The notes beneath the pieces were generated by a model. That model made no database searches and had not been told where the DNA came from. It worked only from the letters and a program-made list of their open reading frames with translations. DNA of 62,912 nucleotides, from the NCBI GenBank assembly GCA_964650845.1, contig CAZYXR010000002.1, positions 15,603-78,514 on the forward strand. Reading direction: 5' to 3'. Origin of the DNA: an uncultured Chitinophagaceae bacterium (GTDB lineage: Bacteria > Bacteroidota > Bacteroidia > Chitinophagales > LD1). Of the stretch, positions 10,341 through 32,670 are shown piece by piece (within the stretch, counting starts at the first letter, position 1; every line of letters starts with the position of its first letter). The position numbers were made by a program, and so were the translations under genes.

Positions 10341-10370
10341 ATTGCTTGAACTTTTTAAGAGTAATGATAT

Positions 10371-11240: not shown

Positions 11241-11388
11241 AATTTTTATTTTGCGTATTGTTACGACTGAATTTTTATTTTGTTTCAATTACATCCTTAT
11301 ACAATGCTATTGTTGTTAATTAAAAAATTCACAAGGTGTTGATAATCATGACAGTTGCATCCAGACACGCTAAAAAATTTTTACCATA

Positions 11389-12402: not shown

Positions 12403-12515
12403 AGCAAAGAGATTTGTCAGATATTTTCAGGTGGTACGAAAACAATATTGCGTTTTTTTGACTTATCAACCCAAGTTGGCTAAGTCGATTTTTTAATCGT
12501 TTTTTTTGATGGTCA

Positions 12516-16482: not shown

Positions 16483-17955
16483 ATGAAGGTATTATTCTTA
16501 AATCCTCCTGATAAAAATACCGTTCCAGAGGCTCCTGATGATAGCGGAGAAGGCTATTTAGAAGCTGACGACTATGGGTATTTCCCCCCATTGGGGATGT
16601 TGTATGTGCTCTCCTATACAGAAAAAAAACACCCTCATCATCAGTATTTTTTTATTGATGCCGTAGGCGAAAAGTTAGACTACGAAAAACTCCATCACCG
16701 CATTAGTGCAATTAAACCCGATATTGTTGGTATCACGAGTTTCACTATATCATTGACCGATGTAGTTTTATCTGCGCAGGTAGTAAGAAAGATTGTTCCT
16801 GATTCGCATATATGTCTTGGAGGGCATCATCCTACTGCTTTTGCTTATGAAGCGACTCAATTGTCAGCATTTGATTCTATTGTGGTAGGCGAAGGTGAGT
16901 ATGCATTTTCAGAGCTTGTTTACAGAATAGAAAATAGTTTGGACTACACAGATATTTTAGGCGTTTACACTAAAGATTCTATCCGTAATTTTATTCAGCA
17001 AGAATTTAAAGACACCCGTTTCTTGGCGCACATGAATGTGCCCCCGGCATACGTGGAGGAAGTGGATGATATACCGCCTCCCAATAGAGATTACATAAAA
17101 CATATTAGCTACAACAGCATTGTAGGGGTTAGTGGTAAGTTAGCTACTATGATATCAACCAGAGGCTGCCCTTACAAATGCACGTTTTGTGATGTGCCAT
17201 ACAAAAAATACAGGCAACGAGATTTGGATTTGGTTATGGACGAGATTGAAACATGCCTTGCCATGGGATATGACGAGTTTCATTTTTATGACGATTTATT
17301 TAATGTAAATGCTAAGAAGATAATTTCATTTTGCGATGCTCTTGAAAGACGAAATTTGAATATTGTGTGGGACTTCAGAGGAAGAGTGAATGGTGTTACA
17401 AGAGAGTCGTTGGTTAGGGCTAAGGAAGTTGGTTTAAGGCAAATTTCTTTCGGAATAGAAACAGGCTCAGATATAGGGTTGCAAACTTTACGCAAGGGCA
17501 CGAACACAGAACAAATGCTTAATTGTTTTGAATGGTGCAAAGAATTAGGAATAAAAACTGTTGCCAATTTTATGATCGGGCTTCCTCATGAAAAATCTGT
17601 ACAGGATATACGAGATAACGTAGATTTTCTAATCCGCTTAAATCCCAACTATACCCTGATTAATGTTTTAAGTTTATATCCTCATACTGAAGTTCACAAG
17701 CAAGCACTTGCGAAGGGCTTGGCTAAAGAAGGCGAGTGGGAAAGATTTTCGCTCGACCCTCTAAACTACAAATTCAGAGTAGAGCATTGGACAGAGTATG
17801 TTAGTGAAGCAGAATTGGTTAAACTTCAACGAGAGTCTTACAAAAGGTTTTATTTCCGCCCTCGATACATTTGGAACAGCATTAGAACTATAACAACGGC
17901 ACACGAGTTAAAATCAAAAATGCGTGGGGTGATGAAACTATTAAGTATGAATTAG
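16483..17955 (+). CDS. B12-binding domain radical SAM enzyme (class B)
   Basis: An N-terminal cobalamin-binding-type domain (KVLFLNPP...PPLGMLYVLSY...DIVGITSFT...CLGGHHPT) and a CxxxCxxC motif (GCPYKCTFCDV). I place the start at ATG 16483. Confidence 0.85.
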   Translation: MKVLFLNPPDKNTVPEAPDDSGEGYLEADDYGYFPPLGMLYVLSYTEKKHPHHQYFFIDAVGEKLDYEKLHHRISAIKPDIVGITSFTISLTDVVLSAQVVRKIVPDSHICLGGHHPTAFAYEATQLSAFDSIVVGEGEYAFSELVYRIENSLDYTDILGVYTKDSIRNFIQQEFKDTRFLAHMNVPPAYVEEVDDIPPPNRDYIKHISYNSIVGVSGKLATMISTRGCPYKCTFCDVPYKKYRQRDLDLVMDEIETCLAMGYDEFHFYDDLFNVNAKKIISFCDALERRNLNIVWDFRGRVNGVTRESLVRAKEVGLRQISFGIETGSDIGLQTLRKGTNTEQMLNCFEWCKELGIKTVANFMIGLPHEKSVQDIRDNVDFLIRLNPNYTLINVLSLYPHTEVHKQALAKGLAKEGEWERFSLDPLNYKFRVEHWTEYVSEAELVKLQRESYKRFYFRPRYIWNSIRTITTAHELKSKMRGVMKLLSMN

Positions 17956-18081
17956 AGGAGATTCAACACAGAGAACTTCGTCAATAGGTTTGTTTTACCA
18001 ATGAGAGAATTAGGAAAATAATAATATTTATTTGAGCTTTGAGAGGTATGGATAAATAAACAGTTTAAAGAAAGTACAATA

Positions 18082-19068
18082 ATGATAACCGAATTAATCA
18101 ACAAAATAACCAAAAGGTCATCTAACGAGATTGTTAAGTGGCTGCCGATAAAACAAAGTTTTATCAACGAAGAAGAATATACCAATGTTATTCACGACAA
18201 AGGATATGTGATTGCGGGAAAGTTAACTGAAGACCAGTTGAGCCAACTAAGAAAGCTGTATAGCGAATTGCATAATTTTCAACAGCAAGAGGGTGGGATG
18301 TTTTATAGTGTGTATTCGCGAGATGTTGCCTACCGTAAAAAGGTAAACGATGATATTCGCGCTATTTTAAAGCCAACGTACGATACCCTTTTCCACCACT
18401 ACAAAACCGTTATCAATTCTTATATTGTAAAAGTAAGTGGCCCCGAAAGCGAATTTTCACTACATCAAGATTCTACAGGATTGGATGAAATGATTTATTC
18501 GTGTCTGAGCGTGTGGATTCCTTTGCAGGACACAAATTACACAAACGGCTGCTTGAGTGTGGTTCCGCACAGCCACAAAATGTTTTCGCCATATCGAGGA
18601 ATTTCGTTTCCGCAGCAATTTGAAAGCATCAGTAACACCGTTCGCAAATATTTACAGCCAATAGAAATGAAGGCGGGAGAAATATTATTGTTTGACAATC
18701 GTTTAGTTCACACATCAGGTGTAAATAGTTCGGGCGAAGATAGGGTTGTGGTAATGTCTGGCATCTTCCCGTCTGATGCAAAAATAGTTTCTTGTTATAA
18801 AGACGCAACTGTTGAAAACAGCCCAATAGAAATTATTGAACAAGCCGATGATTATCTCATCACATTCGAAAATTTCTTCCACGATTGCACTTGCCGCCCC
18901 GAAACAGGAACTTTAATTGGCACATCGAATTGGGACACATCGCAGATGAGTGAAAAGCAATTTTTGGTTCTTTGTAAAGAATATGGATTGAAAGAAAACA
19001 GCAACTGCGATTATTGGAAAGCATCCGAACGACAATCAATCATAGGCGAACCCGTTACGAAACAATGA
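18082..19068 (+). CDS. PhyH (phytanoyl-CoA dioxygenase) family Fe(II)/2OG oxygenase, paralogue 1
   Basis: LHQDSTGLDE (HxD), WIPLQDTNYTNGCLSVVPHSH, and RLVHTSGVNSSGEDR (distal His and Arg). Confidence 0.8.
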   Translation: MITELINKITKRSSNEIVKWLPIKQSFINEEEYTNVIHDKGYVIAGKLTEDQLSQLRKLYSELHNFQQQEGGMFYSVYSRDVAYRKKVNDDIRAILKPTYDTLFHHYKTVINSYIVKVSGPESEFSLHQDSTGLDEMIYSCLSVWIPLQDTNYTNGCLSVVPHSHKMFSPYRGISFPQQFESISNTVRKYLQPIEMKAGEILLFDNRLVHTSGVNSSGEDRVVVMSGIFPSDAKIVSCYKDATVENSPIEIIEQADDYLITFENFFHDCTCRPETGTLIGTSNWDTSQMSEKQFLVLCKEYGLKENSNCDYWKASERQSIIGEPVTKQ

Positions 19069-19874
19069 CCTCGATTTTTAAAAACGAAGCGCATCAAAAA
19101 GAAATCAGCCAAAAAGGATTTGTTCAAATTCCTCTTTTGTCGGAGTTTGCTATAAAGGAGCTACTCCTGTTTTTTGAGCAGCAAACAGAGAATGTAATTG
19201 AGCCATTTCATACAACCCACTTCAGTACTAATAAAAATTATAAGCAAGCTACGCATGATATTATCAGCAAAATAGTTTTTGCCGCAGTGGAGCCATTGTT
19301 AGATAATTTCATACCTGTTTTTGGCAATTTTATGGTGAAGCAAGCGGCCGAAAATGTGTTTATGCCATTGCATGCCGATTGGACGTATGTGGATGAGAAC
19401 AAATACAGAAGCATAGCGATTTGGATTCCACTAATAGATACTGACGAAGGAAACGGTTGCTTGGGTGTTATAGAAGGTTCTCATACAATAATGAACAAAA
19501 TTAGAGGGCCAAGAATTCAACAAAGCAGTTACACCCACGATAAGGAATGGGTAAAAACTTTGGGGAAATTATTACCAGCAAAAGCCGGAAGTGCAGTAAT
19601 ATACGATCACGGCTTGTTGCATTTCTCTCCACCAAACCGAAGTGGAAAAATTCGCCCTGCTCTTAATTTATCGCTTGTACCTATGGATGCCGAAACAATT
19701 CATTATTGTATTCCAGAAGGCGCGAGTGAAATAGAGTTATACAAAGTCGAAAATCCACAATTCTATATTCATTACAACAATTTTCAGCGACCAGAAACAG
19801 GAACATTGACAGTAAAATTACCGACTGCCACAGTATCGTTCATTGATGAAAAAATGAAAGCACTTTGTGTGTAG
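19065..19874 (+). CDS. PhyH family Fe(II)/2OG oxygenase, paralogue 2
   Basis: The ATG at 19065 overlaps the upstream TGA (ATGA). Motifs: LHADWTYVDE, WIPLIDTDEGNGCLGVIEGSH, LLHFSPPNRSGKIR. Confidence 0.8.
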   Translation: MTSIFKNEAHQKEISQKGFVQIPLLSEFAIKELLLFFEQQTENVIEPFHTTHFSTNKNYKQATHDIISKIVFAAVEPLLDNFIPVFGNFMVKQAAENVFMPLHADWTYVDENKYRSIAIWIPLIDTDEGNGCLGVIEGSHTIMNKIRGPRIQQSSYTHDKEWVKTLGKLLPAKAGSAVIYDHGLLHFSPPNRSGKIRPALNLSLVPMDAETIHYCIPEGASEIELYKVENPQFYIHYNNFQRPETGTLTVKLPTATVSFIDEKMKALCV

Positions 19875-19964
19875 TATAAAATTGATTGAGGCGCATTCGT
19901 GTTTGATGAAATTGTTTTTGTTTCAAAAGGAAATCAATATTTTCGAGGAAAATAACATCAACAA

Positions 19965-20945
19965 ATGAGTGTAGGTAAAATTTTTTCTTCTTCCCCAATA
20001 AAGTTAATCACTAATCTATTCGGAAAAAGAGATGAAGACTGTTCAATCTCCTCCCAACAACAAAGTGGCAAAGGGAAGCAGCGGATCGATATGTGGGACT
20101 TTCCAACAATGTCTATGGACGATATGTTGAAAAAAGAAACAGCAATCACCGACCTTTACGACAATAAAAAAAATGGATACTTAGTCAAAGGGTTTTTGAG
20201 TCAAGAAGAAGTAGAGTTTGCGTTAGCTAACTTGAAAAAACTTAACGCGACCTCTAATGGAGAATTTCCTAAGGGAGCTGGTTATAGTAACCCTAAAACT
20301 TTTTCTATGCTAGCAGATGAAAAAATAGGGGTAAGCGAAGAATTATTAGATCAATACTTGGCAGAAATTGAACAATATCGTTTGACGCTAGATAATATAT
20401 TCCCTTTTGGCTACGAGGAGCGACTGCTTAATTTTTTCTCATCTATTGAAAGTAATATTGATGTAAAAATACCAGTTATCAAAAGAGGTAAAGACTTAAA
20501 ACAGTTAACAACATCCACTTTTAGATTTTGCTATCCTGATGGCGGAGGAATGAATACTCATGTTGGAAATATGTTTCCTACAATTTATCCATTGTTTTAC
20601 AGTTTCTTAAATAAACTAATGAATATTGAACGCCAAATCAGTTATTTCGTAATGCTTTCGAAGCCAGAAGAAGGAGGAGATTTAGTGCTTTTTGATGCGC
20701 TCTGGGGGGATTTTGTACTATATGACCCAGTAAATAGAAGTATAATAAAGGCAGACGGAAAAAGAGTATTGCTAGCAGATTTGGATAGTCAACCTATTAG
20801 TCCAAATCCTGGCGATTTGATTCTATTTAACGGAGGTGATATATGGCACAAAGTGGATAATCTTTCGGGTTCTAGAAGCAGAATAACAGTGGGAGGCTTT
20901 TTAGCAAAAACGATAAATAACTCAAATATTTATGTTTGGTCGTAG
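19965..20945 (+). CDS. 2OG-Fe(II) oxygenase-fold protein (prolyl-4-hydroxylase-like) with H-V-G in place of HxD
   Basis: YPDGGGMNTHVGN, EEGGDLVLFD, and GDLILFNGGDIWHKVDNLSGSRSRITVGGF match the P4H-like pattern Y..GG....HxD / GGE / H....R by eye. The start is uncertain. Confidence 0.55.
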   Translation: MSVGKIFSSSPIKLITNLFGKRDEDCSISSQQQSGKGKQRIDMWDFPTMSMDDMLKKETAITDLYDNKKNGYLVKGFLSQEEVEFALANLKKLNATSNGEFPKGAGYSNPKTFSMLADEKIGVSEELLDQYLAEIEQYRLTLDNIFPFGYEERLLNFFSSIESNIDVKIPVIKRGKDLKQLTTSTFRFCYPDGGGMNTHVGNMFPTIYPLFYSFLNKLMNIERQISYFVMLSKPEEGGDLVLFDALWGDFVLYDPVNRSIIKADGKRVLLADLDSQPISPNPGDLILFNGGDIWHKVDNLSGSRSRITVGGFLAKTINNSNIYVWS

Positions 20946-20984
20946 TTGTGATTGAATCATTAGCCGGAGCATACAAACCTCAAT

Positions 20985-21800
20985 ATGTTTATAGAACAAT
21001 CGCATAATACTCTTTTTGAGCAACAGGGGTACGTTGTACTTCCACTGCTTGAACAAAAGGATATTTCGTATCTCGAAAGTCTTTATATTGAAAGTGCGTC
21101 CGATGCACAAGTAAAAGAACCTTTTTACACTTCTGTGTGGAGCCCAAACAGAGCTTACCGAAAGTTTGTTTACGAAAAAGTAAGCCCTATAATGTTTAAT
21201 CAGGTTGCTAAATTTTTGTTAGACAGCGAACCAATATTTTCCAACTTTCATGTCAAAAAAAGTGGCGGAGATAGTGCATTGATTCCACATCAAGATTGGA
21301 ACTTTGTGGATGAAACAAAGCACCAGTCAATGACAATTTGGTGCCCGCTAACCAATGTAGATGAAAAGAACGGAGCTTTGCAGGTAGTATCAGGGTCGCA
21401 TCGCATGAATAATTATGTAAGAGGGCGTTTTTTTGACTCCCCTTTTGAAAACATTCGGGATACTGTAGTCAAAGCTAAAATGACATCAATTCCTATGAAA
21501 ACCGGAGAGGCTATTTTTTTTCATTCACGATTGATTCATGCTTCGTCCCCTAACTTATCAAATAGTACTCGTGTGGCGGCATCTGTTGTAGTGGTACCTA
21601 ATGGAACACCCATTGTTCATGATGTATTAGATAGAAAATCCGCTACTGTTAAACGGATGAAAGTAACCCCCGATTTTTTTTATAATTATAGTTGTTATGA
21701 TGATTTATTGGGTATTGCTGGCATAGAACAGGGCACTTATCGTTATGAAGCAATTTCGGGTATAGAATTAGATGCTGTTTGTGGCAAGAGGCACTATTGA
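20985..21800 (+). CDS. PhyH family Fe(II)/2OG oxygenase, paralogue 3
   Basis: IPHQDWNFVDE, WCPLTNVDEKNGALQVVSGSH, RLIHASSPNLSNSTR. Confidence 0.8.
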   Translation: MFIEQSHNTLFEQQGYVVLPLLEQKDISYLESLYIESASDAQVKEPFYTSVWSPNRAYRKFVYEKVSPIMFNQVAKFLLDSEPIFSNFHVKKSGGDSALIPHQDWNFVDETKHQSMTIWCPLTNVDEKNGALQVVSGSHRMNNYVRGRFFDSPFENIRDTVVKAKMTSIPMKTGEAIFFHSRLIHASSPNLSNSTRVAASVVVVPNGTPIVHDVLDRKSATVKRMKVTPDFFYNYSCYDDLLGIAGIEQGTYRYEAISGIELDAVCGKRHY

Positions 21801-21821
21801 GTTTATATGTAAGGAGACAAT

Positions 21822-22727
21822 ATGAAGAATCCAATTTTTAAAAGCGAAGAAGAGCAAGCAACATTTGAAAAAGATGGCTATGTAGTTGTTCGGAGGTTGA
21901 TACCTCCGCCCATTGTGGAGGCACTTAATGCACTATACTTAATGCATGAAAAAGAATCTCAGGCGGATCAGCATGGGATGAGCAATTCCTCACATGCAAG
22001 AAGCCCAGAAGCAGCTCTAAAAATATGCCAACAAATGGAATCGCTTGTTACAGAGTACGTGGATAAGCATTTGATAAACTATAAATTTTTAGGGGGAGGT
22101 TTTTTAGTTAAAAAAAGTGGAGAAGATTCGTACTTTGATATGCATCAAGACAGAACTCTTGTAGAAGAACCACAGTATTGCTCATTAAATTTTTGGATGA
22201 GTTTGGACGACATTGGCAAAGATCGCGGACGGTTGTTTGTGCTGAAAGGTTCTCCTCGACTAAGCCCATATATTCGGACGGCTCCTGAGTATTCAATGAA
22301 GTTGAATCAAGTTAAAAAAGTTGCCCCACATTTCTTTACTTACTTGGATACAGAAGCGGGCGATGTTGTGTTTTTTAACCACGCCCTTATTCACGGCTCA
22401 GAAAAAAACCTGTCTGGACGCAACAGAATGGCAGCAACAATGGGGGTATATAGTACGGATGCATCATTGTCAATTTATTATAAAGATTCCGAAAGTCCAC
22501 CAGACAAAGCTGAGCGGTATCTCATAGATAATCAAGTATTTATCAATTCAAGAAATGGGCGCCCACCCAAAGAGGATTTTAATGGATTTGTTCACCTCGG
22601 TAAAGCGTGGAGCAGCCCTATAACCCCAAAACAACTTTCTGATTTTATGATGCAACAATTAAGTTTCAAAGAGAAGGTAATCGTCTATGGAAGGAAAATG
22701 AAATCTGTTTTTCAGAAGAAGTATTAA
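21822..22727 (+). CDS. PhyH family Fe(II)/2OG oxygenase, paralogue 4
   Basis: MHQDRTLVEE, FWMSLDDIGKDRGRLFVLKGS, LIHGSEKNLSGRNR. Confidence 0.8.
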   Translation: MKNPIFKSEEEQATFEKDGYVVVRRLIPPPIVEALNALYLMHEKESQADQHGMSNSSHARSPEAALKICQQMESLVTEYVDKHLINYKFLGGGFLVKKSGEDSYFDMHQDRTLVEEPQYCSLNFWMSLDDIGKDRGRLFVLKGSPRLSPYIRTAPEYSMKLNQVKKVAPHFFTYLDTEAGDVVFFNHALIHGSEKNLSGRNRMAATMGVYSTDASLSIYYKDSESPPDKAERYLIDNQVFINSRNGRPPKEDFNGFVHLGKAWSSPITPKQLSDFMMQQLSFKEKVIVYGRKMKSVFQKKY

Positions 22728-22775
22728 CTATGCAAAAAAAGAATTTTTTTATTTCATTATAGTAATATACTCGCT

Positions 22776-23603
22776 ATGCTTTTCAAAGATAAATCGCTGT
22801 ATGAGTTATATCGTAAAGACGGCTATGTTGTGCTCCCGCTTTTTGACGATAATTATCTGGGTGCTTTGAAAGAACTTTATCAAAAAAACACCATCGGTCA
22901 AGAAAAAGGACTACTACCTTCCTTGAGATATAGGAGCAATGACGAGAAAGTAACAGAGTATAATGATATTGCTGCAATCGTTGATACCGCACTAAGAAGA
23001 TATTTCGAAGACTTTGATTATGTTGCAAATCATTTTATCACGAAAACAGCTAATAATCCTGATGAATTTAGACTACATCAAGACTGGAATGTTACTGACG
23101 AAGATAAGTATATCGCTGCACATATTTGGTCGCCTTTGCAGGATACCGATGAACAAAACGGAGGATTGTTTGTTGTTAAAGGCAGTCACAACTTTTTCAA
23201 AAATTTCCGCTCTGGTTCATTAGGAATACCTTTTATCACAACTACCGAAAGCGTAAAGCAGCATATCACTTCCTTTAAATTAAAGCAAGGTGAAGCAATT
23301 GTTTATAATCAGGCATTGTTTCACGGCTCTCATCCCAACAATACCGATACAGACAGAAAAGTCGTATTAAGTTGTATTAAACCCAAAGAAGCTCCTATGC
23401 TGATTTATCATAAGGAAGGCGCAGATAGTTCAGGAACAAGAATAAAAGCATATAAAATCACCCCCAATATGCTGTTGGAGCAAATTGCGGAACTTGAAAA
23501 AGGAGCAGTGCCCGAACAAGCAGCCCTTTATTCAGAATTTACAGTTTCAAATTCGCAGCAAAAAGAGATAAATAATTATAGTTTTGAAGCACATCTTCGC
23601 TAA
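22776..23603 (+). CDS. PhyH family Fe(II)/2OG oxygenase, paralogue 5
   Basis: LHQDWNVTDE, IWSPLQDTDEQNGGLFVVKGSH, LFHGSHPNNTDTDR. Confidence 0.8.
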   Translation: MLFKDKSLYELYRKDGYVVLPLFDDNYLGALKELYQKNTIGQEKGLLPSLRYRSNDEKVTEYNDIAAIVDTALRRYFEDFDYVANHFITKTANNPDEFRLHQDWNVTDEDKYIAAHIWSPLQDTDEQNGGLFVVKGSHNFFKNFRSGSLGIPFITTTESVKQHITSFKLKQGEAIVYNQALFHGSHPNNTDTDRKVVLSCIKPKEAPMLIYHKEGADSSGTRIKAYKITPNMLLEQIAELEKGAVPEQAALYSEFTVSNSQQKEINNYSFEAHLR

Positions 23604-23604
23604 C

Positions 23605-24492: not shown

Positions 24493-24514
24493 TGCTCTAT
24501 ATTAGATAGTTTAC

Positions 24515-25501: not shown

Positions 25502-25521
25502 AGAATTCTTACGGAATTTAT

Positions 25522-26679
25522 ATGATACACAAACAAAGAATATCGTTGTTGATGATGATCGCAATCGCTGTTGCGATTGTTTACAACGGGTGCAATTTTT
25601 ATAAACCCCAGCAAGACTCTATACACAATCACGAAAAGTATAAGAATATATCAAGGGCAGATCTCTTGAATGCGTGTCAATCGTGCCATGCAGAACAACA
25701 CAAAAATGAACAACTTGGTCCACACGCCAATGCTTATAAGGCTTTGGCAGAGCATAAAGAGTATGTTAATTCTACTGAATATAATTTAGCTGGATACACC
25801 ACACTTGTAAACCGCGATTTAGAGACAGAATGTATTAATTGCCATGCCCCCAAGAATTTGTTTGAAGATGCTTATGTTGGATTAGAGCTTTTGTCCATGT
25901 CCGTGTTAAGCAAAATGCCTACGGATACATTTTTTACAGAACCCAAACCAAGAATAGCGGAGCGACTGACGGGTATTGATTGTCTTTCATGTCACTACAA
26001 TGGTAAAGACGTTTTGGCTTCAAAGAACTTCAAAGAGAAAAAAGAAAGTCGTTCGATAGAAGGATATTGTTTTCCTAAACCATCTGCTTTTTTAAGCTCA
26101 GATCTTCTTTGTGCCAGTTGCCATAAAAGTAATTATAACGATAAAGAAGATTTTTTGGGGATTACTTCTATGAACTGCAATAGTTGCCACACAGAAAAAA
26201 TACAAGGCAGCTCCACACATTACACTTATTGGAAAAACCGAAAAAAAGAAGTGCTTGATAGTTCTTACTACGAAGGTATGATAGCGGGTCTAAAGATTAC
26301 AAATGAAAAAGACAAAATATTTGTGCAACTAAAAAATACATCAATCCCTCATCCATTTAATATTTGTAGAGAAACGGGTGTTTTGTTTGAATTTAAGAAT
26401 AGTAATAATGCTGTTTTGACTGAGAAACGAGTAGTGTTAAACCGAAAAGATGTTTACTGTAGTTTTGTTGATATACCACAATTTGCAAAAGAAGCAAAAG
26501 CGGCAAGCGAGTCGGGCAATGCATTTGAATACAATGCAGAGCCGATTACTTTTGAGGTTGATAAAGCAAAACATAAAGGGATAACAACCGTAGGGGTGAG
26601 CGTATTAACCAAGGGGCAATATTGGCATGATGATAGCACAGGAGATGTAACAATCCGAAAGTCCTATCCCATAAATTGA
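25522..26679 (+). CDS. lipoprotein with five CxxCH motifs (putative penta-haem c-type cytochrome)
   Basis: A signal/TM segment ends in VYNGC. The motifs are CQSCH, CINCH, CLSCH, CASCH and CNSCH, followed by a ~130-aa C-terminal domain without Cys motifs. Confidence 0.65.
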   Translation: MIHKQRISLLMMIAIAVAIVYNGCNFYKPQQDSIHNHEKYKNISRADLLNACQSCHAEQHKNEQLGPHANAYKALAEHKEYVNSTEYNLAGYTTLVNRDLETECINCHAPKNLFEDAYVGLELLSMSVLSKMPTDTFFTEPKPRIAERLTGIDCLSCHYNGKDVLASKNFKEKKESRSIEGYCFPKPSAFLSSDLLCASCHKSNYNDKEDFLGITSMNCNSCHTEKIQGSSTHYTYWKNRKKEVLDSSYYEGMIAGLKITNEKDKIFVQLKNTSIPHPFNICRETGVLFEFKNSNNAVLTEKRVVLNRKDVYCSFVDIPQFAKEAKAASESGNAFEYNAEPITFEVDKAKHKGITTVGVSVLTKGQYWHDDSTGDVTIRKSYPIN

Positions 26680-26754
26680 AATTAAGTATAATTGCGCTCA
26701 GGCAAATGATTTATTGTTTCGCAGTGGCAAACAATTACATAGATAAAAGCATCA

Positions 26755-27987
26755 ATGTCTCTTCCAATAATTTCAGTCAATAATGTAGCAAAATCTTTCA
26801 AAGTTGCCGATAGCAATACACAAACAGTAGGGATTGGCAGTACATTTTGGGCATTAAAAGATATTTCTTTTGACGTTTTGGAAGGAGAAGTGTTGGGAAT
26901 AATTGGGCGCAATGGCTCAGGCAAAAGCACACTACTTAAAATTCTAAGTAACATAGTTAAACCATCCTCAGGCACAGTTATGTTAAGAGGAAATGTTACA
27001 TCTATTTTAGAGATTGGGTCTGGCTTTCATCCAGAACTCACTGGGATAGAAAATATTTTTCTCTATGGTAGTATGCTTGGAATGAGCCGAAAAGAAATAA
27101 ACCAATTGTTGGAAGAGATTGTTGATTTCAGCGAAATAGGAGATTTCGTTAATGAGCAAGTAAAAAATTATTCCAGCGGTATGTATCTACGCCTTGCATT
27201 GTCGGTAGTGCTGCAGGCGCACATTTCAACCCTTATAGTTGATGAAGTATTAGCGGTAGGCGATGCCGGGTTTAAAAAAAAGACGTTTGACAAAATCAGC
27301 TCACTTATCAAAAAGAGAGGCGTTTCTGTTGTAATGGTATCTCATGGAATGAACGACCTAATTGAGTTAAGCAATAGGTGTATTTACTTAGAAAAAGGAA
27401 GAATAGTTGACGAAGGTCTGCCCGATGATATCATTTCACGGTATTTGGTGGATGTTACTTCTGGAAACAATAGAAAAGTGCCACCTGGTTCTGTAAAAAA
27501 GTTGGAATGGGATAATGTGCCAGAGGCTCCGGGCAATAATCAGGTGCGACTAATTGGAGTAGCCATAAAACAAGATCAAGAAGAACAGCGAAGCGATATT
27601 TTTATTGAAGATGCCCTTTTTTTTGAAGTTGAATTTGTAAAACTGACAGACAATATTGCTTTAAATGTAACCCTTGTTTTTTACGATGCATTACAAACCC
27701 CGCTGTTTTTTGCCACATCATTGTACAACAAAGCAGAAGCAGATATAGACAACTTATATCAAACAGAGAAAGGTCGCTTGAAGTATTCTTGTTTTATACC
27801 AAGTTTTTTCAATGCAGGGCATTATTCTTTTCAAGTAAAGTTTGGTACAGAGAGCGAACCGGAACTCTATGTACATAGCGAAAAGTTTAGTTTTTCAGTA
27901 AAAAAGAATCCCATTTTAAAGTATCAAGAGATAAAACCAGTGATACTTAGACCGAGTTTCAATTGGGTTCATCAAAGAATTCTATAG
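26755..27987 (+). CDS. ABC transporter ATP-binding protein, Wzt/TagH (polysaccharide-export) type with an extra C-terminal domain
   Basis: Walker A GRNGSGKSTLLK, signature YSSGMYLRLAL, and Walker B LIVDEVLAVGD, plus ~170 aa of extension beyond the NBD. Confidence 0.85.
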   Translation: MSLPIISVNNVAKSFKVADSNTQTVGIGSTFWALKDISFDVLEGEVLGIIGRNGSGKSTLLKILSNIVKPSSGTVMLRGNVTSILEIGSGFHPELTGIENIFLYGSMLGMSRKEINQLLEEIVDFSEIGDFVNEQVKNYSSGMYLRLALSVVLQAHISTLIVDEVLAVGDAGFKKKTFDKISSLIKKRGVSVVMVSHGMNDLIELSNRCIYLEKGRIVDEGLPDDIISRYLVDVTSGNNRKVPPGSVKKLEWDNVPEAPGNNQVRLIGVAIKQDQEEQRSDIFIEDALFFEVEFVKLTDNIALNVTLVFYDALQTPLFFATSLYNKAEADIDNLYQTEKGRLKYSCFIPSFFNAGHYSFQVKFGTESEPELYVHSEKFSFSVKKNPILKYQEIKPVILRPSFNWVHQRIL

Positions 27988-28099
27988 ACGTTAGACAGAA
28001 AATTATTCTTCAGAGAAATGACAATCACTTTAACTGTTCTTTTCTGCAAAAATTTTATTTGAATCAACTTGCTGTCTTGTTTTTTGAAATGGTGTATGC

Positions 28100-29330
28100 C
28101 TAACGTTTAAAAAAATGGCTATAAATAAGTCGTGCAGCTTCATTATATCCAGTGGAGTTAAAATGTGCATCTATATGCCAATATAGTTGTTCAGGCTTAT
28201 TATATCTTGATAGGCTATCATTTAAATTAAGGTATTCTATGTTTAACTCAGTTAATTGCTTATTTAATGCCATATACTCATTATTAACACTCAAAACTTC
28301 CGATAGCACAGGGGTGAGTACCACATAAAGCCTTACATTTTCTTTATCTGTCCAAGGAATAATTGAGAACTTAAACAGCTCTATAATCTGTTTTATAGCT
28401 TCTTGCGCTGCAGCTGTTTTATCTTCCTTTGTCATCAGTGTAAAATCATAACCAAGCACATTATGCATAAAAAGCCTAAATACATAACTTATTGCGTAAA
28501 GCGGTTCCCAAAATGGAGGTTTGCGAAATTGTATAGAACCATCATCTAAAAATCTCCCCCCCCCCGCGCATCATAACATCATTTATATCGCTTTGATTCA
28601 TCATAAAAATTGCTCCGTAAACAGGATACCGAGATTTTAATACCTTCAAAAGATTAAACTCAAAGAAAGGATCGCTTCCACTACTTCCACCATTCACAAT
28701 TTCTATATTAGTATCAATTTGGGCAATATGTTTTTCAAGAAGAAAAGGATATGTACTATCATGGGGTGCCCCAAATGATTCTGTGAAAGAGTCGCCTAAC
28801 GTGATAATCGTTTTTTTGTTTTTACTCGGCAGTTTACCCCTTAAGCCTAGTTCATTGGTTTTTTCATTCGTATAATTGAACTCAGGTGCTTCATAATCTC
28901 TTGTTACATTTGCATCAGCTATATGTAAATGCTTGATTTTATCTTCCGAATTATTTTTTACAGACGAAATCTTATTATAATCTGTGTCATACATCGTATA
29001 ATACTCTCCGCTCAACCTTTCAGAATAAGTAATTGGGTATTTGAAATAAAACCTAAGGGTTGTTTCTGCTATAAATAAAGAAAATACGATAGAAGCAAAT
29101 AACAACAAAACATAGTTGGGCTTAATATTTAATACTTTGAAGATTACAAAAGGCAATATAAATAGGATTGTGTAGTATAAAATCGTAACAGTGAATGTTG
29201 ATTCACCATTAAATGGCATAGACAAGTAGTCTGGTATCTTTAACGCAATAAGTATTTTTAATGCAAAGAATATTATCAGAGTGTATTTCAATACTTTTAT
29301 AAACATATTTGATTTGTGGAATTGCATCAT
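28100..29330 (-). pseudogene. membrane-anchored SGNH hydrolase/O-acyltransferase (paralogue 2) interrupted by a frameshift at a G10 tract
   Basis: The upstream ORF has TLGDSFTESFG (block I) and NGGSSGSDP. The downstream ORF has IDAHFNSTG (DxxH). The downstream frame is open back to the G-run, and removing one G fuses the two. Confidence 0.65.
28556..28565. repeat. homopolymer tract C10 (+) / G10 (coding strand)
   Basis: Read directly from the sequence: ...aatctcccccccccccgcgca... Confidence 0.95.
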
Positions 29331-29414
29331 TTCTTTTTTATCTAAAGTAAGGCGGCAAGATAACAAAATACGAATTTCGTCTGATGTTTTTGTTACCTTT
29401 GTAATCTGAATTGT

Positions 29415-30722
29415 ATGCCATCTCCTACCCCCAATAAAATAACTTGTGTAAAGGATGTGTCCGAGAGTAAAGCCTTCTGCATTAAACCTTGGGTACACTT
29501 GCACGTTTCGGTTCATGGCAAGGTTACTCCATGTTGTCAGGCAGCGTGGGAAAATTATGAATTTGGAGACATTAACCAAGAAAGTTTTGGCGAAATATGG
29601 AATGGCGAAAAGATGAGAGAATTTCGCTTAGCGATGCTAAAGGATGATTTTAATTTCCGTTGTCATTACTGCTATAATATTGAAAAAGAGGGGCTTCAGA
29701 GTCATAGAATGCTCACTAACTCAATTTATGCAGACAAATTACCTTGGGTGCTTGAGACAGATGCTACGGGAATATCGCCTAAGGCAAAGCCTGTTTCATG
29801 GGATATTCGCATTTCCAATTTGTGTAACTTTAAGTGTAGAATTTGCGGGCATCATTCAAGTTCCAGTTGGTATGAAGATGCAAAAGCACTTGGATTGCAA
29901 AGGTCAGTGCATAATGAATCTTTATTTTATGATCGCAAAGTTAATAAAGGGACTAAAGATTTTGATTTGTTGATGCGGCAATTGGATTTTGTGATTCCCG
30001 ATTTGGAAGAAATTTATTTTGCCGGAGGCGAGCCTCTTATTGCTAAGGAGCACTATCAAATTCTTCAAAAACTAATTGAACGCGGAAAGACAGATGTCCG
30101 TTTACGCTATCATACCAATTTCTCAAAAACTGTTTTTGGAGGAATAGATGTTTTCAAGTTATGGAAAAATTTTGACGATGTAGGTGTGTGGGCCAGTTTA
30201 GATGATAGTGGGCATAGAGGAGAATTGCAGCGTAACGGGCAGAGGTGGAAAGAAGCAGAAGAGAATCGTGAACGGATGCAGAAAGAATGTGCTAACGTGT
30301 CTTTTGCCATAAATAGCACTATCAGTTTGTTTAATATCCAGCACTTCCCCGATTTTCATCGAGATTGGACAGAAAAAGGTCTCATCTGCATAAATCAGAT
30401 AACTCCACATCTTTTATTACACCCTCTTTATTATAGTATTCAAATATTGCCCAAAGAGATAAAACTTCGGGTTGAAGAAAAAATAAATAGTCACATTTCA
30501 TGGATAAAGGAATATGCTCAAGCACATCCTGACTGTATAGACGCTAACGCGCCCTCGGTAGAAAACTTAATCAATGAGTTGAAAGGATACTTAAAATATA
30601 TGAACTCAAAAGATGAAACAAGGCTGATATCGGAGTTCAGAGAAATGACTGCCAAACTTGATAAACTCCGACAAGAAAACACAGCAGAAACATTTCCTGA
30701 ATTAGCTGAATTGTTCTTATAA
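29415..30722 (+). CDS. radical SAM enzyme with N-terminal twitch (truncated SPASM) domain
   Basis: An N-terminal FCIKPWVHLHVSVHGKVTPCC...FGEIWNGEKMREFR, then CNFKCRIC (CxxxCxxC). It is divergent from the SGNH pseudogene. Confidence 0.8.
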   Translation: MPSPTPNKITCVKDVSESKAFCIKPWVHLHVSVHGKVTPCCQAAWENYEFGDINQESFGEIWNGEKMREFRLAMLKDDFNFRCHYCYNIEKEGLQSHRMLTNSIYADKLPWVLETDATGISPKAKPVSWDIRISNLCNFKCRICGHHSSSSWYEDAKALGLQRSVHNESLFYDRKVNKGTKDFDLLMRQLDFVIPDLEEIYFAGGEPLIAKEHYQILQKLIERGKTDVRLRYHTNFSKTVFGGIDVFKLWKNFDDVGVWASLDDSGHRGELQRNGQRWKEAEENRERMQKECANVSFAINSTISLFNIQHFPDFHRDWTEKGLICINQITPHLLLHPLYYSIQILPKEIKLRVEEKINSHISWIKEYAQAHPDCIDANAPSVENLINELKGYLKYMNSKDETRLISEFREMTAKLDKLRQENTAETFPELAELFL

Positions 30723-30789
30723 AGATTCACCACTATCGGTTGCTGTTCGCTTGCAAGAATTGTATAGTTAAAACTGTAATTGAACCTAT

Positions 30790-31638
30790 TTAAAGGGCGA
30801 TTGACTCTTCAACAACATTTTTATTAAGCCACTCAACAATATCTTCTCGAGTCAAAGAAGGTGGGGCGTAATGAAACTTCTTAACTATTGGGAAACGATT
30901 GTCTTGATTACCCCATGCGTTTTCAAAAAAGAACTGATATGGCACATCATAAACAGTAACTTCTTTCGTTTCATCATTCAAGTAATGGTACAAAAACTTA
31001 GCGTCCGGATGTAATAATCCAAAATGCACCACGGGTCTTGGTTGCGGAGTTAGATTATCAAACGAACCGTGTAACACTTTATCTCCGTATATAACCAAAT
31101 CGCCTGCATTAGCATCAATAACATCGCAGTGTTCCACCAATAATTTTTCGTGTTCCATATATGGCCAAGGAGTATTATGTGGCAACGGATAGCCAAAAAA
31201 CGTATGGCTTTTCTTTAGCACATAAAGACGCCCATTTTGAGAAGTAGTATCTACTACCGGCAACCAAATATTATGATAAGAAAAATTCGGCTCATCTTGT
31301 ACGCTATAATCTCTGTGTATAACAATAGCACTTTGAGGAGTTGGGTTTTTAACCAAAAAGGTAGCTGCCGGACAAACATAGTTTTTCATGTATTTGTCCA
31401 AATTGGGTTTTACAATAGCTAAAATTCGGTTGCTTAAAGAAAGCGAACGGTCATGCGGTATATCGCAAAGGCTATTCCACAAATTGCCACACGACTGTCC
31501 ATCAATGTGGTAATGCGATTCAAAAAGATTTTTCAAATCTGCAATCTCTTGAGTGTTCAAGAGGTTTCTTATAATCACATAACCATCCTCATCAAACTGT
31601 TGCTGCAATTCAGAATTGATAAACTCTGCACTTTTCAT
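30790..31638 (-). CDS. PhyH family Fe(II)/2OG oxygenase, paralogue 7
   Basis: IHRDYSVQDE, IWLPVVDTTSQNGRLYVLKKSH, KVLHGSFDNLTPQPR. Confidence 0.8.
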   Translation of the reverse strand: MKSAEFINSELQQQFDEDGYVIIRNLLNTQEIADLKNLFESHYHIDGQSCGNLWNSLCDIPHDRSLSLSNRILAIVKPNLDKYMKNYVCPAATFLVKNPTPQSAIVIHRDYSVQDEPNFSYHNIWLPVVDTTSQNGRLYVLKKSHTFFGYPLPHNTPWPYMEHEKLLVEHCDVIDANAGDLVIYGDKVLHGSFDNLTPQPRPVVHFGLLHPDAKFLYHYLNDETKEVTVYDVPYQFFFENAWGNQDNRFPIVKKFHYAPPSLTREDIVEWLNKNVVEESIAL

Positions 31639-31920
31639 AAACTTACTTTTTGCGAACCTACAATAATTTATCTGATTGCAAAATCTAAGGATGTCATATT
31701 TTTAGTGAAAATCAGAAGCAGTGGGACATAGTATTGATGAGGCTACAAATAGCCTTTAGCTATATTTTCAATTACCCTCAAATTTTTTTTGTAACTTTGC
31801 TCAAGATAATAAATTACGTTTAAGTTATTGTAAATCAAATAGGTATATTGCTTTATTGCGCAGAGGCTACCTTTTTGATTCCCTTCTTTTAAAACACACA
31901 CAAAGTAACAACAAACAAGC

Positions 31921-32670
31921 GTGAAACCCAAAGCAGTATTTTTTTTAAACGAGACTGATACATACAACGGTTCGGAACCATTTTTTTATAATCCGGAAAG
32001 TTTTAGCTGGGTAGCTTCTTTGGAGTCAAACTGGCATATCATTCGCGATGAAATGCAAGATATAATATCAGGAAATCAAGAAATAGTTCTTAGTAGCCCA
32101 AACCCCCCCTATCTGTCGCAACCGAGTGCTTGGAAGAATATTTACTTTTGGAATTTCATGTGGCAATATCACAAGAACTGCCGCAGATACCCAAAAACTT
32201 ACAATCTGTTAAAAAGCATTCCTAATCTCACTTTTGCTGAATTTACAGTTTTGGAGCCACATAGCAGAGTTCTCCCCCATATAGGCGAAACCAACACTAC
32301 CATTAGAGGTCATTTGGGAATTGTTATTCCTGGAAAACTACCTTTAGCAGGCATTAAAGTAGGTAATGAGGAAAAAAGTTGGGAAGAGGGTAAAGTGGTA
32401 CTATTTAGCGACTGTCACCGCCATACAGTTTGGAACGATACAGACGCAAGAAGATTTGTCTTGGTTTTTGATATTACACGACAAGAGTTTACTGATAAAA
32501 AACTATGGGTAAATGCGCAAAGTCTTTCGGCCCTTACTATTAAATTTTTAGATGAGAAAATGAGACTGTTTATGTATTTACCTAAACCAATACTGAAAGT
32601 TGCGCATAAATGTATCGCAGCTATGTGGTGGTTGTATCTACCCGTTCAAAACAGTAGAAGATTTTTTTAA
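31921..32670 (+). CDS. aspartyl/asparaginyl beta-hydroxylase (AspH/LpxO) family oxygenase
   Basis: FYNPESFSWVASLESNWHIIRDEM, LPHIGETNTTIRGHLGIVIP, FSDCHRHTVWN. GTG start as listed. Confidence 0.78.
   Translation: MKPKAVFFLNETDTYNGSEPFFYNPESFSWVASLESNWHIIRDEMQDIISGNQEIVLSSPNPPYLSQPSAWKNIYFWNFMWQYHKNCRRYPKTYNLLKSIPNLTFAEFTVLEPHSRVLPHIGETNTTIRGHLGIVIPGKLPLAGIKVGNEEKSWEEGKVVLFSDCHRHTVWNDTDARRFVLVFDITRQEFTDKKLWVNAQSLSALTIKFLDEKMRLFMYLPKPILKVAHKCIAAMWWLYLPVQNSRRFF

Follow-up and report, generated by a model that had tools for sequence, protein, structure and literature searches.

Introduction

In the O-polysaccharide export systems in which the ATP-binding cassette (ABC) ATPase Wzt bears a C-terminal carbohydrate-binding domain (CBD), namely those of Escherichia coli O9a/O8, Klebsiella O12 and Aquifex aeolicus, the CBD binds the terminal cap, and O-antigen and capsule loci typically have a mosaic gene content at one fixed place on the chromosome. 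Among the iron(II)- and 2-oxoglutarate-dependent (Fe/2OG) enzymes, the halogenases (SyrB2, WelO5, BesD) are recognised by their missing carboxylate ligand. The hypervariable wzm/wzt lipopolysaccharide (LPS) locus of the Xanthomonas BXO8 type is reported to encode methyltransferases, a prenyltransferase and an NAD/FAD oxidoreductase along with one or more proteins of the phytanoyl-CoA dioxygenase (PhyH) family (bioRxiv 10.1101/2022.03.02.482478). Here we analyse 62,912 nucleotides of contig CAZYXR010000002.1 from an uncultured Chitinophagaceae bacterium (the whole stretch is called the window hereafter), in which the gene of a Wzt-type ATPase lies among seven PhyH genes, a gene for a WelO5-family enzyme and three genes for radical S-adenosylmethionine (rSAM) enzymes.

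We read the region between ~10.2 and 34.1 kb of the window, bounded by yjdM/rpoD-like genes and recQ, as a Bacteroidota locus for a cell-envelope glycoconjugate, variable between strains and of the ABC-transporter (Wzm/Wzt) type, a reading to which we give a probability of about 0.55. Its content points to an undescribed, heavily oxidised and possibly halogenated surface glycoconjugate. Full-text literature searches yielded no description of this gene combination, of the function of the N-terminal-twitch (N-twitch) rSAM enzymes, of Bacteroidota WelO5 homologues or of halogenated LPS, which agrees with the original prediction, made from the sequence alone, that the combination is not a recognised pathway.

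Results

Gene content and organisation of the locus

Domains were assigned by Pfam and NCBIfam profile searches of the window open reading frames (ORFs), with the family cut-offs applied. Eleven genes follow one another on the + strand from position 16483 to 27987, in the order B12-binding rSAM enzyme, two PhyH proteins, WelO5-family enzyme, four PhyH proteins, rSAM/SPASM enzyme, lipoprotein with five CxxCH motifs and ABC ATPase. Computed with ATG starts at 16483, 19065 and 23605, the successive gaps measure 126, -4, 90, 39, 21, 48, 1, 22, 20 and 75 nt, which bears out the spacing described at first, from a 4-nt overlap to 126 nt. On the 3' side of this run lie a split SGNH-like gene, an N-twitch rSAM gene, the seventh PhyH gene (on the - strand), an Asp_Arg_Hydrox hydroxylase gene and another membrane-anchored SGNH-like gene; on its 5' side we found the genes of a polytopic 572-aa protein, a Gfo/Idh/MocA oxidoreductase, a small family 2 glycosyltransferase (GT2), an SGNH-like protein and a lipoprotein-like protein. 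The searches confirmed the nine Fe/2OG oxygenases, the three rSAM enzymes, the five-CxxCH lipoprotein and the Wzt-type ATPase, each at the coordinates given below, and left the gene list of the original prediction standing except for its P4H-like and SGNH labels. The absence of a non-ribosomal peptide synthetase (NRPS), polyketide synthase (PKS) or terpene cyclase also held, as the ORFs scanned contain no such domain. The oxygenases and rSAM enzymes are all predicted to be devoid of signal or transmembrane segments, which are carried by the polytopic protein, the SGNH proteins and the cytochrome-like lipoprotein; because of this distribution, tailoring would take place in the cytoplasm before export and further decoration in the periplasm after it.

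The gene set recurs as a block across Bacteroidota

An alignment of WelO5-family proteins was scanned against one genome per species, covering 185,579 species. The Bacteroidota matches came from Chitinophaga, Chitinophagaceae, an unclassified Bacteroidetes metagenome-assembled genome (MAG), eight Saprospiraceae and a Flavobacteriaceae MAG. PhyH genes lie near every one of them, and so does a homologue of the window ABC ATPase, except in the loci that we number L012 (Chitinophagaceae MAG) and L032 (a short Saprospiraceae contig). The cyanobacterial matches fell in hapalindole-type clusters without PhyH genes or this ATPase. The loci sharing the combination are L001 (Chitinophaga), L002, L003, L005, L012, L020 (Bacteroidetes), L007/L027-L037 (Saprospiraceae), L039 (Flavobacteriaceae) and L041; it recurs, with gene-by-gene orthology, in at least 13 Bacteroidota species-level genomes and several metagenomic contigs. 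Since the same gene set is found in unrelated genomes, its clustering goes beyond chance; the block is co-conserved across the phylum, which upholds the proposal of a multi-step tailoring locus and answers the concern that its genes might be juxtaposed by accident.

An uncultured Chitinophaga MAG (L001) encodes eleven PhyH proteins, a WelO5-like enzyme, the ABC ATPase, an N-twitch rSAM, a B12-binding rSAM, an AspH-like hydroxylase, an SGNH protein and two paralogues of the 572-aa protein. In L003 we found three B12-binding rSAM genes in tandem, along with genes for an AspH-type enzyme, the 572-aa protein, several PhyH proteins, the WelO5-like enzyme, the ATPase, a Gfo/Idh/MocA enzyme and a Wzm permease. 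Other loci add functions of envelope polysaccharide synthesis: a WecA/MraY-type GT4 and a Wzc-like GNVR/AAA_31 protein in L012; TylF and FkbM methyltransferases, a Wzy_C (WaaL-like) protein, a GT4-type transferase, UbiA and an Asn-synthase-like gene in L007; and UbiA, GT4, PMT_2, GT2 and epimerases in L041, L042 and L043, with a GT4-type transferase in L042. A pair of FAD-oxidoreductase and short-chain dehydrogenase/reductase (SDR), UbiA, and pairs of GT2 with a GT-C-like protein also occur among the related loci. In L041, positions 2394-5573 encode a 1059-aa fusion of UbiA, GT4/GT1 and SGNH/GDSL domains beside a carbamoyltransferase and three N-twitch rSAM genes; because the three domains are fused, this protein suggests that the prenyltransferase, glycosyltransferase and SGNH activities would act on one lipid-linked substrate.

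The ABC ATPase resembles Wzt in both of its domains

The last gene of the + strand run (26755..27987) encodes an ABC ATPase with a C-terminal carbohydrate-binding-like domain, matched by ABC_tran and, weakly, by Wzt_C (21 bits). Its best PDB match is the Wzt of A. aeolicus (6AMX/7K2T; 201 bits), followed by TagH/TarH and RfbE, and NCBIfam ranks the galactan exporter Wzt/RfbE and TagH first, with scores below the thresholds of these equivalogs. When a profile of the C-terminal 175 residues, built from nine loci, was compared with the PDB, the only matches were structures of the A. aeolicus Wzt CBD (8DKU, 7K2T, 8DKY and 6O14; E 3e-5 to 8e-5). Orthologues in the related loci align over the full length, C-terminal domain included, at 33-47% identity. 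The Wzt-like assignment made at the outset is thus well founded at the sequence level, the nucleotide-binding domain (NBD) and the C-terminal domain both matching A. aeolicus Wzt. A Wzm gene is adjacent in L003, L012 and six Saprospiraceae loci (L007, L027, L029, L033, L035, L036).

The interior of the locus varies between strains

Over 4.2 kb of the left flank, ending at window position 10216, a contig of the same species from a JGI metagenome (L005) matches the window at 99.1% identity. Immediately beyond, the window segment 10217-19073 is replaced in L005 by unrelated genes for a GMC-like oxidoreductase, an SDR, a different polytopic protein and a GT2, and the genes common to both strains are only 83-94% identical. 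Relative to L005, PhyH6 and the split SGNH gene (segment 27989-29413) are insertions in the window. The number of PhyH genes is seven in the window and five in L005, and it ranges from two to eleven between lineages. The contig of a near-identical strain (L044) starts inside the locus and confirms the right flank, with recQ, manC, lpxD and lpxC-fabZ. Such a mosaic interior between conserved flanks resembles the population genetics of surface-antigen loci.

Seven ancient PhyH paralogues and an AspH-type hydroxylase

The HxD...H...R signature is kept in all seven PhyH proteins, each of which was assigned by PF05721. PhyH 1 (HQD; 18082..19068, + strand; 82.7 bits) has an orthologue in L001 (43% identity). 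PhyH 2 (HAD; 19065..19874, ORF from 19014, + strand; 67.8 bits), whose start overlaps the end of PhyH 1 through ATGA, has orthologues in L001 (51%), L002 (82%) and L005 (90%). After the WelO5-family gene come PhyH 3 (HQD; 20985..21800, + strand; 82.4 bits; L001 41%, L002 60%), PhyH 4 (HQD; 21822..22727, + strand; 72 bits; L002 67%, L005 85%), PhyH 5 (HQD; 22776..23603, + strand; 51.8 bits; L003 51%, L002 76%) and PhyH 6 (HQD; 23605..24492, ORF from 23584, + strand; 48.8 bits; L001 50%, L003 52%), the last being missing from the same-species locus L005. PhyH 7 (HRD; 30790..31638, - strand; 57.6 bits) has counterparts in L001 (40%), L002 (80%) and L005 (87%).

The seven paralogues are only 21-33% identical to one another, and for six of them L001 and/or L003 contain orthologues of 40-52% identity. 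The separate orthologues score above the paralogues, a pattern that fits distinct, site-specific roles; these are old enzymes, each conserved in its own right, as would be expected if they catalyse separate steps of one pathway. A recent tandem duplication was rejected on the same figures, each paralogue having its separate orthologues, and so were SyrB2-type halogenase sites, given that HxD is present in all seven. The closest solved structures to the PhyH profile are MysH, PHYHD1 and PhyH, which score highest, and those ranking after them include SnoK, SnoN and EvdO2 (E 1e-8 to 1e-11). Fusions of 620-645 aa with two PhyH domains, each with its own HxD, are encoded in L012 (4226-6163), L020 (11843-13711), L039 (1105-2976) and L041 (17109-18974); the one in L012 overlaps and directly succeeds the Wzm gene.

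The ninth Fe/2OG enzyme (31921..32670, + strand) is a soluble hydroxylase of the AspH/LpxO/OlsC superfamily without transmembrane segments (PF05118, 131.6 bits), with homologues in L001 (42%), L003 (31%) and L012 (38%). It had been placed in the AspH/LpxO family, and this assignment stands for the superfamily only, as its scores for OlsC (114 bits, cut-off 450) and LpxO (69 bits, cut-off 500) do not reach an equivalog match.

A WelO5-family enzyme with a halogenase-like iron site

The product of the gene at 19965..20945 (+ strand) had been described as a P4H-like oxygenase. This label was wrong: the protein belongs to the WelO5 family (PF22814, 196 bits, cut-off 27) and has H-V-G in place of the H-x-D or H-x-E of hydroxylases. 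It aligns end to end with the sequences of the WelO5 and Wi-WelO15 structures in the PDB (E ~1e-23), with THVGNMF over VHVGNDF and QISYF over QLSYF, at an identity of only ~25-30%. The His-x-Gly motif corresponds to H199-V-G201, the distal His to H295, and S226 is the equivalent of Ser189 in WelO5, a second-sphere residue favouring halogenation; among nine close homologues H199 and S226 are invariant, and G201 and H295 near-invariant. HxG is kept throughout the clade of the window protein (window, L001, L002, L003, L012 and L020), and across the wider family the residue after His-x is G, D, E, N or H. The enzyme is rare, with only 10 homologues recovered by a word-seeded search of 5.8e9 (5.8 billion) proteins, and the homologue in the uncultured Chitinophaga MAG is 52% identical.

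Because the carboxylate ligand is missing, as in the known Fe/2OG halogenases, it is reasonable to predict halogenation by this enzyme, which looks like a halogenase. As far as its sequence can tell, it has every feature of the WelO5 halogenase family, in a wholly different genomic context.

Two variants of this enzyme were observed in the related loci. The WelO5-family proteins of Saprospiraceae (L007, L027, L029, L030, L032, L033, L035, L036, L037) have His-Ile-His, which may form a three-His iron site, and are encoded in Wzm/Wzt loci of classical appearance, next to TylF/FkbM methyltransferases, UbiA and a WaaL-like/TPR protein. In L005 (10001-10843) and L006 (7234-8076), both P0004, an internal deletion removes the second iron-binding His, and the putative halogenase is probably inactive there, which adds to the differences between strains.

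A GT2 and a putative GT-C-like transferase

Three genes on the - strand precede the oxygenase run. The small soluble GT2 (12516..13274; PF00535, 65.6 bits; no transmembrane segment) resembles the synthases of polyprenyl-phosphate sugars (ArnC/PpgS/DPM1-like), with partial NCBIfam matches to ArnC, PpgS, AglJ and dolichyl-phosphate hexose transferase that are all under the cut-offs. The next gene (13252..14244; PF01408, PF22725 and PF02894) encodes a Gfo/Idh/MocA NAD-dependent oxidoreductase, probably a sugar oxidoreductase, with a 32% homologue that adjoins Wzm in L003. The third (14432..16150) encodes the 572-aa polytopic protein with ~11 hydrophobic segments, which is a putative periplasmic GT-C-like glycosyltransferase using a polyprenyl-phosphate-sugar donor. 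All three had been listed as flanking genes in the original prediction, and these searches agree with it.

The 572-aa protein has no Pfam match and no sequence match in the PDB, where the 519-aa polytopic protein of L005 has no match either. Its family has 291 representatives, and a Pfam scan of 40 members gave two weak DUF6056 matches only. An AlphaFold2 model built from a 90-sequence alignment reached a predicted local distance difference test score (pLDDT) of 92.5 and a predicted template-modelling score (pTM) of 0.93, as against a pLDDT of 41 with a 5-sequence alignment. A Foldseek search with this model returned GT-C proteins (PglB, AftA, AftB, ArnT, AglB, Pmt4) as seven of the nine top matches, with probabilities of 0.90-1.0 and marginal E-values and TM-scores; EmbC was also among the structural neighbours. 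A [DE]xx[DE] motif lies right after the first transmembrane segment, where positions 38 and 41 (WDHND) are D/E in 64 and 73 of 90 family members, respectively, in what is a loop by inferred topology. The model thus suggests a resemblance to GT-C glycosyltransferases. Orthologues in L001 and L003 are directly upstream of the PhyH run. In the window the GT2 gene lies two genes from that of the 572-aa protein, and similar pairs of GT2 and polytopic protein were found in L002, L005 and L043.

rSAM enzymes, pentahaem cytochrome and SGNH proteins

The CxxxCxxC motif is kept in the three rSAM enzymes of the window. The class B (B12-binding) enzyme, encoded by the first gene of the + strand run (16483..17955; ORF from 16444), was identified by PF02310 and PF04055 and has the motif CPYKCTFC; its NCBIfam matches to BchE, HpnJ, ApyD and PhpK are all sub-threshold. 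The rSAM/SPASM enzyme (24515..25501, + strand; PF04055 and PF13186; CNHACTFC from residue 38) belongs to an accessory module: it is present in L005/L006 and in L012 (29%) and was undetected in L001 and L003, and no SPASM orthologue was detected in L001-L003. The adjacent gene (25522..26679, + strand) encodes a pentahaem c-type cytochrome lipoprotein, predicted to be periplasmic, with five CxxCH motifs, the lipobox VYNGC and matches to multihaem Pfam families. A 36% homologue exists in the distant Chitinophagaceae locus L012, beside a GT-C-like gene, and the protein is absent from L001-L003; the L012 counterparts of the cytochrome and the SPASM enzyme are at 13188-14387 and 18083-19093. Inside the PhyH/WelO5/Wzt locus of L020, positions 8041-9408 encode a type II copper monooxygenase of the PHM/DBH kind that has a cytochrome-c-like segment at its N-terminus; an AhpC/TSA-like protein comes next. 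This is a further oxidative module of the periplasmic type, like the pentahaem protein of the window.

The N-twitch rSAM enzyme (29415..30722, + strand; CNFKCRIC) scores 384.8 bits with NF033640 (cut-off 170), with a SPASM match at residues 22-86 and the rSAM domain from residue 132. More than 1000 homologues were found, mostly in Bacteroidota, and their genes adjoin GT2, PMT_2 (GT-C), UbiA, GT4, epimerase and weak SGNH-like genes. Weak GDSL/SGNH proteins of ~340-380 aa are encoded beside N-twitch rSAM genes in L020 (6934-7965), L041 (14067-15143), L042 (365-1411) and L003 (14414-15556). Because such genes recur at this position, and the N-twitch gene of the window is itself flanked by the split SGNH gene, the arrangement suggests a functional pair.

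Three membrane-anchored SGNH proteins had been proposed in the window. We found the three loci, one of them split over two frames, and the assignments are weak. The product of 11389..12402 (+ strand) has one N-terminal transmembrane segment, no Pfam or NCBIfam match, and the motifs GGSTS and DDCHLTDGY read from its translation. The gene at 28100..29579 (- strand) consists of an N-terminal part (28542-29579; GDSFTES), with the transmembrane segments, and a C-terminal part (28100-28468; DAHFN), and the gene has a weak ALGX match under the cut-off; the halves are out of frame and 73 nt apart, which makes a pseudogene (frameshift) or a sequencing error probable. The product of 32686..34056 (+ strand), the last gene before recQ, has one N-terminal transmembrane segment, a Lipase_GDSL_2 match (E 8.6e-5) under the cut-off and a 27% homologue in L020.

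Genomic setting

The G+C content of the locus (0.34-0.37) is below that of its flanks. At its left end, the gene at 10371..11288 (- strand) encodes a lipoprotein-like protein of 305 aa with a signal/lipobox-like N-terminus in the translation and no Pfam match; it sits within the strain-specific left part (10217-19073), without counterpart in L005, and its membership of the system is uncertain. A scan for sigma-70 promoters and intrinsic terminators gave fewer sites than shuffled sequence and is therefore uninformative; the promoters of Bacteroidota also differ from that model. The Bacteroidota -7 element TAnnTTTG occurs upstream of 16483 (at 16460, just 5' of the ATG), 18082 and 31921, a weak signal with only 5 copies in ~1.7 kb of intergenic DNA. 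An Rfam scan of the window found no riboswitch or RNA, cobalamin riboswitches included.

Outside the locus, an LpxC-FabZ fusion (40249-41697) and a protein with a C-terminal sorting domain of the type IX secretion system (48223-49068) are typical of Bacteroidota. The segment 44773-62864 resembles an integrative mobilisable element, with a tyrosine integrase (44773-45987), a LytTR protein (46945-47301), a TraG/TraD-type coupling protein (53898-55328), a MobA/VirD2 relaxase (55860-56732), a C39-like peptidase (61062-61745) and a second integrase (61908-62864). In the same element an OLD-family AAA_15+TOPRIM ATPase (58779-60899, - strand) directly followed by a UvrD-like helicase (56872-58833, - strand) forms a Gabija-like (GajA/GajB) defence pair.

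Discussion

From the gene content we infer a substrate, an order of steps, a halogenation and a role of the oxygenases in making the ligand of the Wzt CBD. A lipid-linked intermediate, either a glycan or a glycan with a hydrocarbon-rich substituent, would be tailored on the cytoplasmic side by the seven regiospecific PhyH enzymes, the AspH-type hydroxylase, the WelO5-type enzyme, the B12-binding rSAM (probably by C-alkylation), the N-twitch rSAM and the SPASM rSAM. The product would then be passed to Wzt and recognised by its C-terminal carbohydrate-binding-like domain, with a Wzm partner encoded elsewhere. In the periplasm, the GT-C-like transferase would add a sugar from the polyprenyl-phosphate sugar made by the adjacent GT2 and Gfo/Idh/MocA proteins, and the membrane-anchored SGNH proteins would add or remove acyl groups. 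Strain differences in oxygenase content would give serotype-like variation. Across loci, the CBD-like domain co-varies with the PhyH and WelO5 genes alone, for which reason its ligand may be the oxidised moiety, possibly as a terminal cap.

Several observations weigh against a glycoconjugate. In L020, L039 and L001, ~20 kb are taken up almost entirely by genes of redox enzymes. Unactivated C-H bonds are few in sugars, and 5-11 regiospecific hydroxylases fit an alkyl, isoprenoid or amino-acyl moiety more easily. The related loci also carry enzymes of protein- or lipid-modifying types, such as AspH, UbiA, Cupin_8/JmjC, a PHM-like copper monooxygenase fused to a cytochrome c domain and a CMAS-like methyltransferase. 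The window locus has a single small GT2 (252 aa) and neither an initiating phosphoglycosyltransferase nor a polymerising GT1/GT4, and a tblastn search with two Wzm proteins from related loci found no Wzm in the whole 62.9-kb window. To these are added the Wzt_C score, which is under the Pfam cut-off of 30.4 bits, and the marginal Foldseek matches to GT-C proteins (E 1e-3 to 0.13, TM-score 0.3-0.4). The original prediction had offered an envelope glycan or lipid as the substrate. The envelope context stands, given the Wzt with its CBD, the pair of GT2 and GT-C-like protein, the SGNH proteins and the strain-variable content; the scaffold may be either a glycan or a lipid.

The main rival, a serious one which we nevertheless consider less likely, is accordingly a lipid scaffold: a long alkyl or isoprenoid chain (the aglycone of a glycolipid, or an envelope lipid of prenyl or acyl type) that is multiply hydroxylated, C-methylated and chlorinated and leaves through an ABC-2 exporter like DrrABC, for phthiocerol dimycocerosate, or NodIJ, for lipo-oligosaccharides, the GT2 and GT-C-like proteins adding a head-group sugar only. 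A hydrocarbon chain would be a fitting target for many regiospecific C-H hydroxylases, an isoprenoid acyl-CoA is the substrate of the enzyme that founded the PhyH family, and cytoplasmic glycosyltransferases are scarce in these loci. A CMAS-like methyltransferase adjoins Wzt in L020, L039 and L041, and enzymes of hopanoid and ladderane lipids are among the sub-threshold matches of the B12-binding rSAM. The best NCBIfam matches of the AspH-type enzyme are the lipid acyl hydroxylases OlsC and LpxO, but with scores far under the cut-offs, and the UbiA prenyltransferase that recurs in L007, L041 and L042, fused to GT4 and SGNH in L041, could equally make polyprenyl-phosphate-pentose donors, as in arabinan synthesis. 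Pfam and NCBIfam find no fatty-acid, polyketide, terpene-cyclase or acyl-carrier gene in the locus, whereas the ATPase is nearest to the O-antigen and teichoic-acid proteins Wzt/TagH, with a C-terminal domain that matches a carbohydrate-binding one, and WecA-like, Wzc-like and WaaL-like genes are present in related loci. A further explanation refines the glycoconjugate reading: the PhyH array, the WelO5-like enzyme and the Wzt CBD would build and recognise one cap at the non-reducing end, for example an oxidised or halogenated non-sugar residue, which terminates a polymer made by the variable genes. This would be in keeping with the binding of a terminal cap by the CBD in the known CBD-bearing Wzt systems and with the conservation of the CBD-like domain (33-47%), next to which only the PhyH and WelO5-like genes are common, while glycosyltransferases, GT-C types and rSAM enzymes vary. 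A single conserved cap would not, however, be expected with PhyH numbers that differ within a species (seven vs five) and between lineages (two to eleven), no WbdD-like terminator was found, and the idea is purely inferential, so we regard it as fairly unlikely.

The remaining explanations take the product away from the cell surface or dispense with a pathway. A diffusible, orthosomycin- or aminoglycoside-like oxidised (pseudo-)oligosaccharide that is not cell-bound would agree with the place of EvdO2, the 4XAA oxygenase, SnoK and SnoN, which tailor antibiotic sugars, among the nearest solved relatives of the PhyH proteins, with the tailoring of aminoglycosides by the B12-binding and twitch rSAM enzymes GenK, BtrN and HygY, and with the natural-product halogenases related to WelO5. 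We judge it improbable, as the Wzt with its CBD, the GT-C-like protein and the GT2 of the polyprenyl-phosphate-sugar type point to lipid-linked intermediates, the strain mosaicism at a fixed site beside lpx genes is characteristic of surface antigens, and we saw none of the resistance genes, regulators or NDP-sugar cassettes that antibiotic clusters typically have. The proposal of a very short precursor for a ribosomally synthesised and post-translationally modified peptide (RiPP), to be modified by the rSAM, Fe/2OG and halogenase enzymes and exported by an ABC-2 transporter, fares even worse and is very unlikely. SPASM rSAM enzymes, B12-binding rSAM C-methyltransferases and Fe/2OG hydroxylases are typical of proteusin-like and sactipeptide-like RiPPs, there are sub-threshold NCBIfam matches to ApyD, rSAM_ocin_1, StsB and WgkB, and the JmjC/Cupin_8 and PHM-like enzymes of related loci are known peptide modifiers. 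Nevertheless, the intergenic space of 16 Bacteroidota loci contains no small-ORF family (18-110 aa) common to divergent loci, in a search that very short or unconserved precursors could escape, and the shared small ORFs reflect only the nucleotide identity between the window and L005. A 33-aa ORF (19867-19968, + strand), the only small one inside the operon, is kept only at ~93% nucleotide identity and has no room in L002, and the 126-nt and 75-nt gaps hold no + strand ORF of at least 20 aa. Pfam and NCBIfam scans gave no RiPP recognition element (RRE), leader peptidase, YcaO or lanthionine gene, and the SPASM rSAM has no RRE because its CxxxCxxC begins at residue 38 and leaves no room for one. 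The exporter is of the Wzt/TagH type with a CBD, not a C39-ABC protein, and the context is one of GT2, GT-C and SGNH genes, with Wzm, WecA-like and WaaL-like genes in related loci. Finally, a chance juxtaposition of unrelated oxygenase genes, to which nothing leads beyond the absence of a recognisable scaffold gene, is hardly credible in the face of eleven tightly spaced genes on one strand, and we take it as refuted by the recurrence of the combination in at least 13 species-level genomes and the gene-by-gene orthology across Bacteroidota.

The glycoconjugate reading can be carried further, tentatively and as a less likely case, to a new class of Bacteroidota envelope glycoconjugate in which a lipid-linked intermediate would receive a dense, strain-specific set of cytoplasmic C-H hydroxylations, C-alkylations and an aliphatic chlorination, to be read by a dedicated Wzt CBD for export. 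Such a product, if real, would be the first bacterial surface polymer to carry halogen, and the oxygenase repertoire would replace the glycosyltransferase repertoire as the source of serotype-like diversity. Surface-antigen diversity in a major environmental and host-associated phylum would then come partly from arrays of Fe/2OG and rSAM enzymes, and not from glycosyltransferases alone, through an undescribed envelope chemistry. The locus would also provide a testable ligand for a Wzt carbohydrate-binding domain and a source of C-H functionalising enzymes that act on a common scaffold, with 7-11 orthologous PhyH types. It would place a WelO5-type putative aliphatic halogenase outside cyanobacteria, the relatives of WelO5 being sought-after biocatalysts, and would bring in an uncharacterised N-twitch rSAM family with more than 1000 members and a GT-C-like family with ~290 representatives. 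Were the scaffold a lipid instead, the pathway to such a polyhydroxylated or chlorinated envelope lipid would still be a novelty for Bacteroidota.

Compared with the CBD-Wzt O-polysaccharide pathways (E. coli O9a/O8, Klebsiella O12 and the Aquifex WzmWzt), the locus is alike in its match to both NBD and CBD, in the Wzm, WecA-like, methyltransferase and WaaL-like genes of related loci and in its strain-variable content. It differs in that the window has no Wzm, initiating transferase, polymerising glycosyltransferases or WbdD-like terminator and is dominated by nine Fe/2OG and three rSAM enzymes; we neither know nor found a characterised O-polysaccharide cluster with such a dominance. The synthesis of actinobacterial arabinogalactan/arabinan and the arabinosylation of pilin by TfpW in Pseudomonas combine Wzm/Wzt export with periplasmic GT-C enzymes fed by polyprenyl-phosphate sugars (UbiA, DprE1/E2, AftA/B, Emb). 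With this logic the locus shares a top ATPase match to the galactan Wzt/RfbE, AftA/AftB/EmbC as structural neighbours, the GT2 and GT-C-like pair and, in related loci, UbiA and the FAD-oxidoreductase with SDR; in contrast, it belongs to a Gram-negative Bacteroidota, has no sequence membership of Aft/Emb families, and its oxygenase and rSAM array has no counterpart there.

The individual enzyme classes have precedents of their own. The PhyH proteins that tailor glycosides, such as EvdO2 and the 4XAA oxygenase (orthoester/methylenedioxy formation) and SnoK/SnoN (C-C coupling and epimerisation of sugars), share the PhyH fold and the use of several paralogues on one saccharide scaffold, and KanJ is another glycoside-tailoring PhyH-like oxygenase; their scores are, however, modest (E 1e-8 to 1e-11), with MysH, PHYHD1 and PhyH higher, and they act on free actinomycete antibiotics. 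LpxO (lipid A), OlsC (ornithine lipid) and KdoO (3-deoxy-D-manno-oct-2-ulosonic acid, Kdo) set a precedent for the Fe/2OG hydroxylation of envelope glycolipids, and LpxO and OlsC share the Asp_Arg_Hydrox superfamily with the window protein, but each of these systems has one enzyme and not an array, and the window protein is soluble and not an equivalog. The carrier-protein-independent halogenases WelO5, AmbO5 and Wi-WelO15 of cyanobacterial hapalindole-type clusters share PF22814, His-x-Gly, the second His and the Ser189 equivalent with our enzyme, whose envelope-type locus is without indole-isonitrile or terpene genes and whose substrate is certainly different. The Xanthomonas BXO8-type cassette, compared by description, belongs to a different phylum and has one or two PhyH genes, with no WelO5-like, rSAM or cytochrome genes reported; it is like the locus described here in that genes of the PhyH family form part of a wzm/wzt LPS locus.

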